Shown here: positions 599 to 8,052 of the stretch, one piece after another
Numbering within the stretch: the first letter of the stretch is position 1
Layout of the letters: each line of letters opens with the position of its first letter
Assembly: GCA_043805855.1 (NCBI GenBank)
Contig: JAZDHP010000047.1
Coordinates: 1 to 16,152, forward strand
Direction of reading: 5' to 3'
Length of the DNA: 16,152 bases
DNA from: Candidatus Micrarchaeota archaeon
GTDB taxonomy: Archaea > Micrarchaeota > Micrarchaeia > Norongarragalinales > UBA8480
Made by a program: the position numbers and the translations under genes
The notes under the pieces: generated by a model
Database searches by the model: none
What the model was told of the DNA's origin: nothing
Seen by the model: the letters and a program-made list of their open reading frames with translations, nothing else

Positions 599-818
599 TT
601 CATTTTCCATTTCAGTTTATCAACTCCCTACTTTTGCCCAGTCTTGGCTCGACTTGGTTAATTCGCAAGATCGCTTTTAATGTTTTCCCCACCTAACGGC
701 AGGTCGGCGCAAAGTGCGCCTAAAACAATAAAAGCTCCTTGCTCAGCCAAAAGGCACAGTTCGTTCGAGCCAAAGAACTGGGCTCGAGCGGAGTCGATAA
801 ACTATGGAAAACAATGAA
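599..818 (+). promoter_or_regulatory. Long imperfect inverted repeat (599-652 vs 765-818) able to sequester the endonuclease SD and start codon
   Basis: TTTTCCAT 603-610 pairs with ATGGAAAA 804-811. AGTTTATCAACTCC 614-627 pairs with GGAGTCGATAAACT 790-803 (13/14). GCCCAGTCTTGGCTCGA 636-652 pairs with TCGAGCCAAAGAACTGGGC 765-783 (2 bulged nt). Confidence 0.75.
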
Positions 819-1925
819 AATAAATCACCGGCAGAAATTTCACCGGCAACGACGTGTGTTGAGAAAAGCATAAGCGATCCAAAAGCCAATCCTTCAAATA
901 TGTTAATTCTAACGGCTGAAGATATTTTGAAAACTTATCCAGAATACGAAGCAGAATCAGCAAGAAAGTATTATGAATTTCTAAAATTAAAAGAAGCAAA
1001 TCCAACTTTTGGCTACAAAAAGCTAGCAAAAATGCTCGCATTGCCAATCTCCGCTACTCGCGGCTGGAAGCAATGGAATTGCAAACCAAATCCAATTAAA
1101 GCAATTGAAAAATTAACTCAAATTGGATTACTGCCTCTACATTCGGATAACCAAAAACTACCAGCTATTCTTCGGCTACTGGGCGCTGGATTTACAGATG
1201 GCGGAATTGACTGGAACTTAAATACGTTTCACTTTAACTCAGCTAGAATGGAAAATATTGAAGCATGGAAAAAAGATTTTCTAGAAGTTTTTCCGTACGG
1301 TGAAGAAACCTTGAGCGCCATTATAACTGGATACAACCAAAGCTCAAATGGAATAAGAACAACAGATCGATCAATTGTTCGTTTCTTTGCTGCTCTAGGC
1401 TGTCCAGTTGGAAACAAAACAATGATCAGCTACATATTACCAAAATGTGCGTCACAACTTTCAATAGAACTTAAAATAGCTTTTTTAGATGGATTTTTCA
1501 GCTGCGAAGTAGCAATGCCACAATATCCCATTTGGAGACAAACTAGAAATTTCGTAAACTTTTCGCTCAGTATGAGCAAAATAGAAGAAAAAGAAACTGA
1601 ACATTTAGAGTTCTTAAAAACATTCTGCGAGTTATGCAAGAGCATAGGCATTGAACACACTTCAATAAATCGAGTCCCGCAGAAGAAAATTCACAAGGAT
1701 GGAACACAGCGCAGAAAAGACGGGAAAACATGCGATTCATATAGGATTTTGTTCAGCAACACGTCAGAAAACGTTATGCGCACATACAAGCTAATTCCGC
1801 TAACCTATGCAATTGAAAAGAAACAAAAGTTCAACGAAGCAATAAAAACATACGAGCAACGTCACAGAATACCAATAAACACACCTAGAGAAGAACTTCC
1901 AGAATTGCTCAAACTCTCAAAATAG
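804..1925 (+). CDS. Free-standing intein-type (DOD) LAGLIDADG homing endonuclease with N-terminal HTH
   Basis: HTH-like FGYKKLAKMLALPISATRGW, motif 1 LRLLGAGFTDGGI, intein-endonuclease-like FFAALGCPVGNK, and motif 2 AFLDGFFSCEV. Own ATG with GGAG at 790-793. Confidence 0.85.
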   Translation: MENNENKSPAEISPATTCVEKSISDPKANPSNMLILTAEDILKTYPEYEAESARKYYEFLKLKEANPTFGYKKLAKMLALPISATRGWKQWNCKPNPIKAIEKLTQIGLLPLHSDNQKLPAILRLLGAGFTDGGIDWNLNTFHFNSARMENIEAWKKDFLEVFPYGEETLSAIITGYNQSSNGIRTTDRSIVRFFAALGCPVGNKTMISYILPKCASQLSIELKIAFLDGFFSCEVAMPQYPIWRQTRNFVNFSLSMSKIEEKETEHLEFLKTFCELCKSIGIEHTSINRVPQKKIHKDGTQRRKDGKTCDSYRILFSNTSENVMRTYKLIPLTYAIEKKQKFNEAIKTYEQRHRIPINTPREELPELLKLSK

Positions 1926-1965: not shown

Positions 1966-1982
1966 CAAGGCGTAAACGGCAC

Positions 1983-1991
1983 TTTTTAAAA
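1983..1991 (+). promoter_or_regulatory. Putative TATA box for a leaderless transcript of the Lon C-terminal ORF
   Basis: TTTTTAAAA ends 25 nt upstream of ATG 2016, typical archaeal leaderless spacing. No SD is evident. Confidence 0.5.
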
Positions 1992-2015
1992 CTTCTAACG
2001 CTACAGTTAGTTCAT

Positions 2016-2135
2016 ATGCCGAAAATAACCCGCGAGAAAATCGTGAAGAAGAGAGTATCGAAGAAAAAAGCTTGGTTCTACAATGCAACCACTGCTACAG
2101 GTAACTATTTCGCTAACAAAGTTCTAGTTCACAAC
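2016..2135 (+). mobile_element. Split intein, C-terminal half (IntC, 40 aa)
   Basis: Block [16 protein letters not shown] and block G VLVHN, followed by the +1 Ser nucleophile (TCA 2136-2138). Confidence 0.9.
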
Positions 2136-3380
2136 TCAGGAGGCCTCGGCACACCCGCTCACTTGCGTATTGAAGCTGGCGCAATTCACCGCGCGCACAA
2201 AGGTGTGTTGTTCATTGACGAAATTGCAACGCTAAAGCCACGCGCACAACAAGAACTGCTCACCGCAATGCAGGAGAAGAAATATTCCATAACCGGCCAG
2301 AGTGAAATGAGCTCCGGAGCACTTACAAAAACACAACCTGCGCCGTGCGACTTTGTATTAATAGCTGCAGGCAATTATATGGACGTTAAGCACATGCACC
2401 CAGCGCTGCGCTCTCGTATACGCGGTTACGGTTATGAAATTTACATGGACGAATCAGTACCAGACACGCTTGAAAACCGCACAAAACTAGCGCAGTTCGT
2501 TAGCCAAGAAATTAAAAAAGATGAAAAAATCCCAGCGTTCTCGCGCGAAGCTGTGCTGGAAATTATAAACGAAGCACGCAAGCGCTCAGGGAGAAAAGGT
2601 AAACTTACGCTTAAACTCCGTGAACTCGGCGGACTCATAAGGGCAGCTGGAGATATTGCCAAGCAGGAAAACGCAACGCTTGTAACGCTCGTTCACTTGG
2701 AAGCAGCTAAGAAACTCGCGCAAACGCTAGAGCAGCAAATGGCAACGCAAATTCTCGAACAGCGTAAAGATTACAAGGTATTTTCAACAACCGGTGCCGA
2801 AGTTGGCAAAGTAAACGGTCTCGCAGTAATGGGCGACAGTGGAATTGTTTTACCAATAGTTGCCGAAATCGCGCCGTCGTCAAGCAAAGAAGAAGGCCGC
2901 ATTATAGCAACTGGTAAACTTGGGAGCATTGCGAAGGAAGCGGTTGAAAACGTCTCTGCAATTATCAAGAAACACACTGGCAAAGACATTTCAACTTACG
3001 ACATCCACGTTCAGTTTCTACAGACGTATGAAGGCGTAGAGGGAGACAGTGCGTCGATTAGCGTCGCAACTGCGGTTATCTCCGCGTTAGAGGAAGCGCC
3101 CATTCAGCAAAACATTGCAATGACCGGCTCCATTTCAGTGCGCGGTGAAGTTTTACCAATTGGCGGCGTAACGCAAAAGGCAGAAGCTGCAATAAGCGCC
3201 GGACTGAAAAAGATTATCATTCCAAGGTCTAACTACGATGATCTCGCGTTGACTAGCGCACAGAAGAAGCAAATTGAAATAATTCCAGTTTCAAACCTCG
3301 TTGAAGTACTACAAAGCGCATTGGCACCGTCCAGTAAGAAAAAGCAACTGTTGGAAAAAATCACGAAGGAACTAAAGTGA
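2016..3380 (+). CDS. lonB: C-terminal split-intein half fused to LonB C-terminal part (AAA+ remainder and protease domain)
   Basis: After VLVHN the sequence resumes Lon[24 protein letters not shown], Walker B VLFIDEI, sensor IAAGN, Arg finger [11 protein letters not shown], catalytic Ser in VEGDSAS and Lys in [10 protein letters not shown]. Confidence 0.95.
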
Positions 3381-3425: not shown

Positions 3426-3860
3426 GTGGAAGTAAAAATTTTACACGAATTAAATGGAGTTACAGCCTTAGCTGGCGTTGATTTTGAAACACACAACACG
3501 CACGAATTTAGAAGAGGCAAAAGTAACCTTTCAGTTTCGCATTTAGTGCGCGGAGCTTTCGCAAGCGATAGAAAAATAGATGACATAGCAAGTGAACTAC
3601 ACGCGGAATTAAAGAAAAATCCAAAGCTAGAAGTCGGTTTCGTGCGAGGAGACATGCACGGCATGCCCATGTTTTTCTTAAATAGAACTGGAGATCAGAA
3701 GAAAAATTGGCAAGTGAAATTCCACAAAACCGGCGGCGTCGAAACCATGCACGGCACACACATGTATGTTGAAATCTTGCGCAGATTTAAAACACCTCCA
3801 GCACAAGCACTAGCGTTAAAAGCTAGAGTTGCAAAATTTGAAAGGGAATTACATCAATAA
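3426..3860 (+). CDS. Hypothetical protein
   Basis: 144-aa ORF with GTG start and SD-like GGTGAT at 3415-3420. Fills the gap after lonB. No recognisable motif. Confidence 0.7.
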   Translation: MEVKILHELNGVTALAGVDFETHNTHEFRRGKSNLSVSHLVRGAFASDRKIDDIASELHAELKKNPKLEVGFVRGDMHGMPMFFLNRTGDQKKNWQVKFHKTGGVETMHGTHMYVEILRRFKTPPAQALALKARVAKFERELHQ

Positions 3861-3874
3861 AAAAAATTAAGTTA

Positions 3875-4225
3875 ATGGGAATTAATGTGGAACACTTAAA
3901 AACAATTGCGCGGGTTGTTCACGAGAACTTTGGCGGCGTTACTGGCGTTGGCGTTGTAAATAAAACTAATAGACTAACAGGAACGCCGAAAACATTACTT
4001 GTTTTACACACGGAAGTACCAGGAGGACCGCAGCACGTAATTAACACGCACATAGGCCAGCTTTTAGAACCCTATGGATTTCAAGTGAAACTATGGCCTG
4101 AAATAACCGCTGAACGAATGAGAATAGTCGTAGCAAAAGGTAGGCACGCAATAACAATAACAAGTCAACCTACGAGCAAAAGTAGAGCTGGCGCAATAAT
4201 GATCCACCAAATAGGCATGAGCTAA
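3875..4225 (+). CDS. Hypothetical protein (possibly C-terminally truncated, frame continues to 4282)
   Basis: 116-aa ORF co-oriented with neighbours. No known motif. Confidence 0.65.
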   Translation: MGINVEHLKTIARVVHENFGGVTGVGVVNKTNRLTGTPKTLLVLHTEVPGGPQHVINTHIGQLLEPYGFQVKLWPEITAERMRIVVAKGRHAITITSQPTSKSRAGAIMIHQIGMS

Positions 4226-5744: not shown

Positions 5745-6050
5745 ATGGAAAGGAGAATTGAAGAAACAACAATTGAATCACTTGCTAGAGCTAATGAAGC
5801 GGCGGAACAACTCTCGCGCAGATTAAGGCGACCTGCAAATAACATGGGCAGAACCAACATTTCTCTAAGTGAAAGGCAAGTAACCCTTTGCGGTAAACGT
5901 TTAACTGCCGACCAAAAAAGAACAATGCTCGAACAAGTGGCACACGTAGCCGAATTACATAATTTAATGGCAACTATAGTGCACCATAATTCAACTAAAA
6001 TTACCGCTATATTTGCACCAAAAAGAAAAACCGCTCGAGGAGACGCTTAA
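5745..6050 (+). CDS. Small basic hypothetical protein
   Basis: 101-aa ORF with SD-like GGCGGT upstream. Its C-terminal helix-strand-strand pattern resembles ORFs at 6077 and 7792. Confidence 0.65.
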   Translation: MERRIEETTIESLARANEAAEQLSRRLRRPANNMGRTNISLSERQVTLCGKRLTADQKRTMLEQVAHVAELHNLMATIVHHNSTKITAIFAPKRKTARGDA

Positions 6051-6076: not shown

Positions 6077-6334
6077 ATGGCCGAAATTGCAGCTAGCGAA
6101 TTGGCAGATTACCTTAAAAGAAATGCACGAAAGCTGAGAGGAACTGCAGTTCTTCCAATGGATGAACAAGTAATGCTACACGCTAGGCGGAAACCAGTTC
6201 CCAAAGTTCATAAAGAATTTGCAATTGCAGAGGCGGAGTTAATCGCAACTAGGAGAGATTTAGGATTTGTGCAGCACGACCACACAAACGGCGCGTTCAG
6301 TATTACGTTTACACGAAAAGGAGGAAGAGCATAA
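6077..6334 (+). CDS. Small basic hypothetical protein (paralog of 7792-8052)
   Basis: 85-aa ORF ending 3 nt before proS. EAELIATRRDL...GAFSITF resembles EAKQIAGERGL...GAHEIHF. Confidence 0.7.
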   Translation: MAEIAASELADYLKRNARKLRGTAVLPMDEQVMLHARRKPVPKVHKEFAIAEAELIATRRDLGFVQHDHTNGAFSITFTRKGGRA

Positions 6335-6337
6335 AAC

Positions 6338-7789
6338 ATGTTAATGAGTTCACGCGAATTTAACGAAGATAAGGAAAAGGACTTTTCAAAATGGTACAAC
6401 ACCATAATCTACGCGGCTGACTTGGCTGACATTCGGTACAACGTACAAGGTTTTGTAGTGCACAAGCCGTGGTCAATGCGCGTTTTCAAGAAACTATACA
6501 AGTTATTTGAAACTGAATTGGAAAAAGACAACCACGAGCCAGTGCTATTCCCGACAGTTATTCCAGAAGAGAATTTCAATATTGAAAAAGAACACGCTGC
6601 AGGTTTCACGCCAGAAGTTTACTGGATTACAAAACAAGGAGATAAAGAGATGCCGCGCAAGCTAGCGCTGCGTCCTACAAGTGAAACTGCGTTTTACCAA
6701 ATGTACAACTTATGGATAAAAAGCTATACGGATCTACCGATGAAGCTATACCAGTCGTGCACAGTGTTTCGCAACGAGAGCGAGACAAACCCATTTATGC
6801 GCGGGCGGGAGTTCATGTGGATTGAATCGCACGACGTGTTTGCAAATGAAAAAGACGCACGGCATCAAGTTGCAGTTGATGAAAAGACAATTGAAACGTG
6901 CAGCAAAGCAATGGCAATGCCTTTTTACTTCTTCAAGCGGCCGCAGTGGGATAAGTTTGCCGGCGCAGTTGAAACCTACGCTGCTGACACTTTACTACCT
7001 GATGGAAAAGCGCTGCAATTTGCAACAACTCACTATCTTGGAATTAATTTCGCTAAGGCGTTTAACGTGAAGTACAGCGACGAGAGCGGAAAAGAGCACT
7101 TGCCGCACACAACGTGTTTTGGTCCTGGAATTTGGAGAATGATGGCTGCAATTATTTCAGTTCACGGCGACGCAAAGGGTTTGATATTTCCATTTGCAAT
7201 TGCACCGTTGCAAGTGATAATTGTACCAATTCAAAAAACTGGCGAAGAGAAGCATATTGAAGATTATTGCAATGAAGTGAAAGAACAACTTGAAGCTAGC
7301 GGAATTGAATGTCGCGTTGACAACAGTAGCAAAACTCCCGGTTACAAGTACAACTATTGGGAGTTGAAAGGAGTACCGCTGCGAATTGAAGTTGGCGGCC
7401 GCGAGGCAAAAGAGAAAAACGCAACTGTTTGCCGGCGCGACAATAGAGAGAAAATCACTTGCAAGTTGACTGAAGTCGCAGTAAAGGTTAGGGAAATCGG
7501 CGCAAAACTAGACGTAGATTTACTTAAGAAAGCACAGGATAATTTCAAAGCTAGAGTGAAAAGCGCAAAAACAAAAGAAGACGTGTTGAAAGTTATCGAA
7601 GAGAAGTGCTACGCGAAGACGTTCATCTGTTCAACTGAAAAAGAGGGATTAGAATGTGCACAGGAGTTACAATCATTTACCAAAGGCGGCAAAGTACGCG
7701 GTGAACTCGTAGGTGAAAAGCCAGCGAAGGGTAAGTGTTGCGTTTGCGGCAAAACAGGAGTACAAGTTTACGTAGCGAGGCAGTACTAA
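6338..7789 (+). CDS. proS: Prolyl-tRNA synthetase, archaeal/eukaryotic type
   Basis: FSKWY, LALRPTSETAF, motif 2 FRNE...PFMRGREFMWIE, HGDAKGL, WELKGVPLRIEVG, C-terminal Cys cluster and terminal ARQY. Confidence 0.97.
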   Translation: MLMSSREFNEDKEKDFSKWYNTIIYAADLADIRYNVQGFVVHKPWSMRVFKKLYKLFETELEKDNHEPVLFPTVIPEENFNIEKEHAAGFTPEVYWITKQGDKEMPRKLALRPTSETAFYQMYNLWIKSYTDLPMKLYQSCTVFRNESETNPFMRGREFMWIESHDVFANEKDARHQVAVDEKTIETCSKAMAMPFYFFKRPQWDKFAGAVETYAADTLLPDGKALQFATTHYLGINFAKAFNVKYSDESGKEHLPHTTCFGPGIWRMMAAIISVHGDAKGLIFPFAIAPLQVIIVPIQKTGEEKHIEDYCNEVKEQLEASGIECRVDNSSKTPGYKYNYWELKGVPLRIEVGGREAKEKNATVCRRDNREKITCKLTEVAVKVREIGAKLDVDLLKKAQDNFKARVKSAKTKEDVLKVIEEKCYAKTFICSTEKEGLECAQELQSFTKGGKVRGELVGEKPAKGKCCVCGKTGVQVYVARQY

Positions 7790-7791
7790 TT

Positions 7792-8052
7792 ATGCCAAAT
7801 TTATCTGCACAGAAATTATTGGAATTTATAGCAAGAGAAAAGGAACAAATATCTGCTAGATTAAGCGCAAATCGGCGCGGAGTTGAATTTGGAGATAGCG
7901 GCACCCCGCAAGAAACTGTAATTAAAATAAGCAGAGAAGCTAAGCAAATCGCAGGAGAAAGGGGACTTACGACCGCTTATAACCGGGCACAAACCGGAGC
8001 TCACGAAATTCACTTTATCACACGCAGCGCTGAAATGAGAAGACGCAGATGA
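7792..8052 (+). CDS. Small basic hypothetical protein (paralog of 6077-6334)
   Basis: ATG 2 nt after the proS stop, 86 aa. Pattern similarity to ORF 6077. Confidence 0.7.
   Translation: MPNLSAQKLLEFIAREKEQISARLSANRRGVEFGDSGTPQETVIKISREAKQIAGERGLTTAYNRAQTGAHEIHFITRSAEMRRRR

Follow-up and report, generated by a model that had tools for sequence, protein, structure and literature searches.

Control of intein-derived and intron homing endonucleases in cellular archaea has been little described, and the worked examples that we found are phage genes. In the fractured genes of marine phages, a hairpin was reported in the 5′ UTR of the endonuclease at 15 of 16 loci (Dassa et al. 2009, PMC2677866). 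For I-TevI, I-TevII, I-TevIII and segB of T4 and for Aeh1 mobE, hairpins that sequester the RBS have been shown experimentally (Edgell et al. 2010, PMC2988022). Frpo of conjugative plasmids is a related device at the DNA level: ahead of ssb, its stem-loop restores promoter boxes (Couturier et al. 2023, PMC9849209). Here we describe an archaeal locus in which a long predicted stem, termed the rod, covers the start of an endonuclease gene freed from a Lon intein. We consider it an even chance that the rod is a cis-acting translational lock that arose from a domesticated structured element, with expression from promoters past its left arm, chiefly one headed by a box of the radA type.

The window, a stretch of 16,152 nt, opens within lonB of a Micrarchaeota genome (G000). 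Its first genes lie on one strand in the order N-extein with IntN, free endonuclease ORF, and IntC with C-extein. This is the layout of fractured phage genes, in which the host N-half with IntN, a non-coding spacer, a free endonuclease gene, and IntC with the C-half share one strand as well (PMC2677866).

1..597, + strand: 3′ part of the lonB N-half (1-198) and N-part of the split intein (199-594), with the stop at 595-597; from sequence reading and contiguous intein-bearing Lon homologues
804..1925, + strand: free-standing LAGLIDADG-type endonuclease gene (373 aa), by homology a derivative of the Lon intein's endonuclease domain
1978..1993, + strand: conventional promoter motif of the C-half gene, at leaderless spacing (PWM 9.8)
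2016..3380, + strand: C-part of the split intein (2016-2135, 40 aa, ending in VLVHN) and lonB C-half; from sequence reading

By our annotation, the lonB intein is broken up, with IntN and IntC on either side of a free endonuclease gene. The splicing residues Ser1, TSDH, VHN and Ser+1 can be read in the halves, and we take them to be the nucleophile 1, TxxH, terminal HN and +1 nucleophile of inteins; searches of the halves gave no Pfam intein match. Neither half contains Cys (Ser1, Ser+1), Ser is also the first residue in 23 of 26 other IntN, and IntN is closed by a stop codon in 26 other genomes examined within the order. The split LonB intein (199-594, 2016-2135; L058-L080) is natural across the order, its halves often lying far apart, and contiguous, once-split, twice-split and endonuclease-less forms were all found there. 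Endonuclease loss and uncoupling of the halves, described as later steps for fractured phage genes (PMC2677866), are both seen in the window's order too.

ORF 804 shares homology with the endonuclease domain that contiguous Lon inteins of relatives contain, and the acids of both LAGLIDADG-type motifs, D132 and E235, are invariant in 23 sequences. The two marks of a LAGLIDADG homing endonuclease, paired motifs with catalytic acids and homology to intein endonucleases, are therefore present in the putative protein. Pfam LAGLIDADG_3 was matched weakly by three of the 23 members (E 0.013), and a search against the PDB gave no matches. A metagenome scan yielded four close homologue loci with DNA (L081-L084), whose endonucleases are 65-80% identical; one close homologue carries the name Candidatus Micrarchaeota.

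Further observations were made around these genes. A second lon allele in G000 (C28:1-475 and C41:1-2440; 75-84% aa identity) repeats the IntN and endonuclease-tail/IntC layout and is accompanied by a second CCA-adding gene, which points to a strain mixture or a duplication; both contigs stop before they reach the rod region. In the window, a near-perfect palindrome of 40 bp (1929-1968) separates the endonuclease stop from the IntC promoter; it is absent at this place from L081-L084, in which IntC begins after the endonuclease stop or overlaps it. Unrelated orphan ORFs lie directly 3′ of the IntN stop in two homologues (L082:978-1430, L058:1-375), and the window carries orphan ORFs among its housekeeping genes (3426-3860, 3875-4225, 5745-6050, 6077-6334 and 7735-8052; no Pfam hits). 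Free-standing relatives of the endonuclease (P0016-P0021; 36-38% identity, one named Ca. ainarchaeum) also have an N-terminal extension. Contiguous endonuclease-bearing inteins occur elsewhere in G000, in radA (C29:45030-47555) and in a gene that by eye is RtcB-like (C59, about 13100-16200, minus strand).

Between IntN and the endonuclease gene, a sequence-only reading had placed a built-in silencing hairpin. Its central observation, that 599-652 and 765-818 are degenerate reverse complements of each other, was borne out with correct coordinates, and GGAG (790-793), the AUG (804) and the TATA-like TTTTAATG (675-682) lie where it placed them. The structure is larger than first described: the whole of 599-818 forms one nested rod.

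599..652, + strand: left arm of the rod, T-rich, with anti-AUG (605-610), 3-nt bulge (611-613) and anti-SD (614-627); from the fold, kept in L081-L084
661..746, + strand: conserved core of three stems, with an A.A opposition (680/728), a three-way junction at the apex and two variable hairpins; from fold and comparison, common to the multi-copy f9 element
760..792, + strand: local leader hairpin that, without the left arm, covers the GGA of the SD, using G-U pairs of the sense strand; from the fold
765..818, + strand: right arm of the rod with the SD (GGAG 790-793, extended to 797) and AUG 804; from the fold

The long helix is favoured, as that reading had supposed. Positions 590-830 fold at -86.7 kcal/mol (z -8.15), a stability reached by none of 200 shuffles, and after composition correction none of 1300 sampled 241-nt windows, out of 4249 in the genome, was equally extreme. 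In the fold of 560-900, GGAG and the AUG have a pairing probability of 0.96-1.0. Two details of the earlier picture need correction. TTTTAATG does not lie inside a loop, since 665-742 is a nested stem (665-669/738-742, 673-679/729-735 and 681-686/722-727, with two small hairpins on top) in which seven of its eight bases are paired. The local pairings of the right arm that were to leave the start free (762-771/781-790, 757-762/775-780) do exist, but the local hairpin also spans the GGA of the SD (pairing 0.86-1.0 in transcripts from 705 or 757).

Searches with Rfam covariance models, those for SRP RNA and ribozymes included, gave no credible match for the rod or the f9 element; BLAST of the rod against 401 genomes returned short chance matches only, and pattern and protein searches of viral contigs found no rod or protein match. 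An identity as SRP RNA was rejected, the SRP RNA having been found elsewhere in the genome, and a hammerhead or HDV-like fold was rejected by eye against the known cores. In L081, a 51-nt insert in the rod apex (2223-2276) matches a double-hairpin repeat present at many sites of G000 (best E 1.5e-13).

The proposal that the endonuclease start is occluded on lon read-through RNA holds as a prediction. Opening the region from the SD to AUG+12 on the predicted read-through RNA would cost 16.5-23.0 kcal/mol in all five copies (23.0, 17.4, 20.5, 16.5 and 18.8 kcal/mol), and SD and AUG are predicted to be paired on the long transcript in 5/5, as in a switch of the T4 type. Among 136 crudely called SD-led starts of the genome the median is 7.1 kcal/mol, and the endonuclease gene alone exceeds 15. 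SD motifs at the spacing of the endonuclease gene are used elsewhere in the genome. The extension from AUG 804 to Met900, a second start treated below, comprises whole codons in 5/5 DNAs, and the SD-led start is in frame in all 14 complete close proteins as predicted by gene callers (extension of 28-54 aa; one partial protein left out), although a shared DNA motif inside the extension, the box described below, is read in two different frames. For this reason AUG 804 looks real.

The rod is kept in all four metagenome homologues (sense-strand z -3.6 to -6.4), and the spacer before the endonuclease start, 206 nt in the window, measures 206-290 nt over the copies. In L082 a foreign ORF separates IntN from the rod, which stays beside the endonuclease; the rod therefore travels with the endonuclease start. 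Measured against four-fold sites (identity 0.41-0.49), the rod arms are conserved far above neutrality: identity is 0.88-1.0 in the inner right arm, 0.76-0.96 in the inner left arm, 0.79-0.92 from SD to AUG and 0.56-0.85 in the outer left arm. One DNA contig from sequencing runs spans 340-1211 with 66 substitutions and two gaps, the gaps lying outside the rod. No rod follows the IntN stop in 27 other loci of the order (all z above -3.5). Two distant homologues with the same split (G021 and G057) have neither rod nor box and carry a strong ordinary TATA instead, which speaks against a lock.

The covariation that the sequence-only reading had called for was observed: 7 of 58 consensus pairs changed on both sides. 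Among 500 shuffles, the cell count of double changes was reached by none and the pair count by seven; the structure was derived from the same five sequences, and the changes amount to about 4-5 independent compensatory events. Arms also pair better with their own partners than with swapped ones (whole arm rank 2 of 120 permutations, core 4 of 120). For the SD/AUG part of the stem alone, partner matching was not significant (rank 13 of 120), and this, with the number of DNA copies being five, weighs against the lock.

The left bulge is conserved in the homologues with 3-4 nt. From the bulges, the sequence-only reading had speculated that the outer stem has a BHB-like geometry open to cutting by the tRNA splicing endonuclease. 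Such cutting would excise SD and AUG as an intron. The bulge conservation, a 3-4-3 geometry that can be drawn in the window and a splicing endonuclease encoded in the genome are compatible with such cutting, yet we regard it as almost certainly not the function of the stem. In a BHB substrate, a stable stem carries one 3-nt bulge on each strand, and 4 bp separate the two. The bulges at 611-613 and 812-814 are 8 bp apart, not 4, and the variant around CCAU/AUGG has only one outer pair before a mismatch and no equivalent at the AUG in any of the four homologues. The helix preferred between the bulges has 6-8 bp, and no conserved substrate was found.

Expression of the nuclease would require a way around the rod. 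The sequence-only reading had assigned this to a short transcript from the TATA at 675-682. That assignment did not hold up: the PWM score of 6.3 in the window falls to 2.8-4.6 in the four homologues, and in 4/5 copies the transcript would still be blocked by the leader hairpin (opening 9.7-15.6 kcal/mol; window 6.2). Three other elements of the region were considered; PWM scores of at least 6 are expected by chance about twice per locus.

721..736, + strand: promoter-like motif facing the endonuclease, with a weak ATAA-type TATA and a predicted start near 754-759 (PWM 6.0-6.3 in 5/5; near invariant)
672..687, - strand: mirror promoter-like motif facing left, antisense to lon-N, on the same bases as the TATA of the sequence-only reading (PWM 8.8 in the window, 4.6-7.7 in homologues)
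752..786, + strand: stretch resembling the empty Lon homing site, a possible autorepression operator; significant only in the window

A transcript from 721-736 would free the SD in the window and in L084, and partly in the other three copies (opening 7-14 kcal/mol). The mirror motif at 672-687 is not significant by score alone. If both motifs formed a back-to-back promoter pair, the leftward one (687-672) would give an RNA, starting near 651, that is antisense to lon-N, complements the left arm and damps read-through or frees the start in trans. The leftward motif has the best promoter score in the region (8.8), the start predicted for it coincides with the left arm's inner edge, and most f9 copies have an opposite-strand gene on that side. 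We nevertheless give such an antisense RNA only a slight chance, in view of the scores of at least 6 that arise by chance, the L081 insertion that breaks the upstream part of the motif (4.6), mirror ORFs of 3-27 codons that are not conserved, and apex hairpins that would be left unexplained. The homing-site likeness at 752-786 ranks fourth of 2.06 million positions; it may be due to chance because the homing site is itself quasi-palindromic, and it was rejected as a general feature of the rod. Its overlap with the predicted start region recalls the autorepression operator of I-TevI (PMC2988022), with the difference that the likeness here is clear in one of five copies and marginal in a second.

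The idea of an internal promoter for the endonuclease survives in another form, since the best candidate is a promoter overlooked earlier, which lies behind the rod.

840..857, + strand: 18-bp box common to the promoters of radA, MCM, a Fic gene, a DUF736-like operon and six other LAGLIDADG genes; from the matrix, with a partial copy at 825-834
864..874, + strand: weak TATA-like element, AAAAGCATAAG, belonging to the box promoter; an unrelated gene in G001 (L207) is preceded by this variant with equal spacing
900..902, + strand: second, leaderless-type start Met33 (Met900), 60 nt from the box; Met kept in 14/14 complete close homologues

With a matrix trained on nine other genomic sites and 840-857 held out, the box at 840-857 reached the top score of 31.8 bits, and all four homologues scored 19.2-31.8 bits. 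Scores of at least 24 bits occur at 11 of 2.06 million positions, nine of them training sites, and the next score is 18.6. The 11 sites precede radA, MCM, a small ORF upstream of radA, the Fic gene, the DUF736-like operon, the gene at 804 and five other LAGLIDADG genes; the site of the sixth other LAGLIDADG gene scores 17.8 bits. Five of these six genes lie in or beside the rRNA operon. Besides 840-857 of the window, the sites are G000 C29:47724, C29:48799, C2:12045, C28:13122, C67:3882, C19:14322 and C5:56591-64118. The exact box pattern matched 24 times in 7 of 68 genomes, with 21 matches within the genus and none in the controls. The box precedes radA-like genes in 4/4 genomes of the genus (G000 and three others) and MCM-like genes in two of the three others, where these names denote resemblance to the G000 proteins.

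The box usually lies about 28 nt before the TATA and 56-66 nt before a leaderless start; the distance to Met900 is 60 nt in the window and 57-60 nt in the homologues. Before the unrelated gene in G001, the weak TATA AAAAGCATAA is found again with identical spacing. CATAA is depleted at ordinary TATA positions (0.19x), which counts against it. The position of the box relative to the TATA would fit an activator. We therefore regard the box as heading a candidate promoter for the leaderless start at 900 that would bypass the rod. Judging by the neighbouring genes only, the box regulon may answer DNA damage; activation by TFB3 upon DNA damage has been described, in a paper whose available part holds nothing on the 18-bp box (PMC7289017).

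If the box promoter bypasses the rod, loss of SD and AUG would be a simpler way of silencing read-through, and the retention of both needs the less supported promoter at 721-736, a point against the lock. This retention would also be explained by translational coupling, in which ribosomes at the upstream stop melt the foot of the rod and yield a low, translation-dependent amount of the AUG-804 form. The stem does start 1 to about 20 nt past the upstream stop in 5/5 copies, including that with the foreign ORF of L082. The anti-SD, however, lies at least 25-30 nt past the stop, a distance over which a terminating ribosome is not expected to unwind the RNA, and the spacing is not fixed; coupling is accordingly of low probability in our judgement.

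The rod core also occurs where no start codon is covered, namely in several copies of a structured element of roughly 400 nt in another family (f9), and the sequence-only explanation of the rod as an antisense copy of this gene's start is thereby not supported as an origin. A covariance model built from the core only found a match in G043 before a DUF736-like gene (per-genome E 0.0024, a rough value). Following this gene and the element through f9 recovered the full core five times and a left-part-only copy another five times, in 5 of the 10 f9 genomes searched, with 1-3 copies per genome; the arms of the element cover no start codon. Three copies precede a DUF736-like gene (atlas score 0.91), which has ordinary promoters in other families. 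In the 10 cores, the TTA/TAA pair is present in 10/10, the A.A opposition is invariant, and of the 40 cells at four flanking positions 39 are paired, with both sides showing changes. Among 16 chosen loci, L148 was hit by the rod HMM (E 2e-5), while the f9 HMM gave no hit on the rods; the link between rod and f9 rests on the core in these comparisons. Because this core resembles a multi-copy element that covers no start codon, the rod looks like a domesticated insertion.

The full copies are located at L183:1400-1760, L154, L155:1075-1420, L190:1355-1690 and L148:1270-1660, and the partial ones, which retain the left part only, at L187, L188, L191, L192 and L193. The full element consists of the rod and downstream hairpins, including a conserved CTGAAGA...AAAGTC motif. 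A 19-mer core pattern gave 20 hits in genome contigs that behaved as chance. A strict core pattern found only G000 and G043 among 401 genomes, with two control hits; since it was written after G043 had been seen, the latter hit is not independent. With a looser pattern in 68 genomes, only L183 was real besides G000 and G043, and L179-L182 and L184 were dropped, as was a weak model hit in the spacer after secY in G022 (L149).

In the light of these copies, the rod could chiefly be one more copy of a structured element, either mobile or a non-coding RNA, its fold being maintained because a protein or a processing enzyme recognises the core, with coverage of the start being secondary. The full and partial copies, with their invariant A.A, three-way junction and two-sided changes, agree with such an origin of function, as do the better fold of the f9 element on the sense strand (-66 vs -46) and copy L183, which has no sense gene behind it. 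The core, moreover, is the most conserved part of the rod and is unneeded for occlusion. Still, we find this reading unlikely. The rod is single-copy in G000 by genome search; the refuting case that the sequence-only reading had itself named, a multi-copy MITE unrelated to the gene, is borne out in part by the f9 copies. In the loci compared, SD, anti-SD and in-frame AUG are limited to the endonuclease clade and conserved there. The homology is confined to the core, and no mobiliser was found: Y1 transposases are encoded in 3/5 genomes, flanking no rod at the three loci, and reverse transcriptase in 0/5. Palindromic repeats of the REP/REPIN and MITE type occur as dispersed copies with a conserved stem mismatch and a variable apex. 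The f9 element shares these three traits, but it is about 400 nt long, occurs in few copies and has no adjacent Y1 transposase or cognate transposase with matching ends.

The strand on which the rod acts is a matter of conflicting evidence. The opposite strand of 590-830 folds equally significantly (z -8.24), and the strand of action therefore cannot be read from energy alone. The five-rod consensus folds better antisense (-59.7 vs -44.8), and sense A.C oppositions are about as frequent in the outer stem as G-U pairs, both of which argue against an RNA lock; the f9 element folds better sense, and the leader hairpin uses sense G-U pairs. Counts of G.T against A.C did not decide between the strands: they were 27 vs 10 for the template in the five rods, being non-independent and including the flanks, and one f9 row was mis-anchored.

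The rod could also be a single-stranded-DNA promoter, an archaeal counterpart of plasmid Frpo captured by a homing endonuclease and possibly the first in archaea, but we hold this to be rather improbable. According to such a scheme, with the same low probability, the folded template strand of incoming or damaged DNA would obtain a canonical TTAA TATA and BRE from the left arm in place of the weak ATAA. Equally improbable is the corresponding start in the unpaired region near 743-764, by which the nuclease would be transcribed when an empty allele can be met. The asymmetry of TTAA on the left and ATAA on the right holds in 10/10 cores, the mirror motif outscores the forward motif in 4/5 rods, and the mirror spans promoter, leader and start. 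On the template strand, the first apex hairpin carries a G..A loop with a closing C-G pair in 5 of 6 copies inspected; DNA loops of this kind are stable. The position of three f9 copies before a DUF736-like gene with ordinary promoters in other families would also fit. Against this stand the sense preference of the f9 element, the location of L183 and L190, which are not before DUF736-like genes, and the acceptance of AATAA at ordinary promoters here (2.05x). DNA parameters give the template strand the better z in only 2/5 full rods, and no archaeal precedent was found in the literature searched. If it were true, the nuclease would be wired twice, through the rod and the radA-type box, to foreign or damaged single-stranded DNA and be RNA-locked otherwise.

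Returning to the translational lock, we envisage that lon-N read-through RNA folds and buries the SD and AUG 804, so that the nuclease would not be made from the housekeeping lon transcript. Its production would instead rely on transcripts beginning past the left arm, chiefly a leaderless mRNA that the box promoter supplies and that is translated from the start at 900; this mRNA would be co-regulated with radA and presumably be on when recombination is induced. The longer AUG-804 form may stem from the weak promoter-like motif at 721-736. The core would derive from a dispersed structured element like that of f9, the arms having been remodelled around the start site. A complication for the lock is that the T-rich left arm could terminate transcription before the rod forms. 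Taken together, the arrangement suggests a cutter held off until recombination is switched on.

The locus offers a concrete, testable circuit that would combine an RNA lock against read-through with a promoter box. Seven endonuclease genes of one genome have this box in common with radA and MCM, which suggests that selfish nucleases of separate origin have joined a single host regulon for recombination in a DPANN archaeon. The locus further points to an undescribed family of structured elements and to a series of intein-splitting intermediates within one order. It also indicates natural cysteine-free split inteins, which are wanted for protein labelling (PMC13014065). In a literature search that covered few subscription papers, we found no description of the locus, the box or the element, and nothing on Micrarchaeota Lon inteins, translational repression of archaeal endonucleases or LAGLIDADG-2 RNA. 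Relative to the literature searched, the shared radA-type box and the dispersed structured core are new, while the control scheme itself is already known.

Compared with fractured phage genes, the host gene here is a cellular archaeal Lon, as opposed to phage replication genes, and the endonuclease is the intein's own freed LAGLIDADG-type domain, where an invading Vsr-like or GIY-YIG gene is found in phages (PMC2677866). The spacer of 206-290 nt (206 nt with a nested rod in the window) contrasts with spacers of 27-51 nt that hold a short hairpin with a phage late-promoter element, and the covarying three-way-junction core common to a dispersed element and the radA-type box behind the hairpin are additional differences from those genes. 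As with the T4 and Aeh1 hairpins, the long transcript would hide the RBS, the transcript of a nearer promoter would lack the inhibitory strand, and the timing is proposed to match recombination (PMC2988022). In those systems the hairpin is short and local and the promoter is a late one of the phage; the present one has a predicted 220-nt rod of two layers, a candidate archaeal promoter box and a second, putative leaderless start. With Frpo and ssi, the rod shares a long imperfect stem-loop, promoter-like boxes in the stem and, for some copies, a position before a probable single-strand-binding protein gene (PMC9849209). It differs from them in being chromosomal and, as a putative promoter, of the archaeal TATA type, with a conflicting strand preference.
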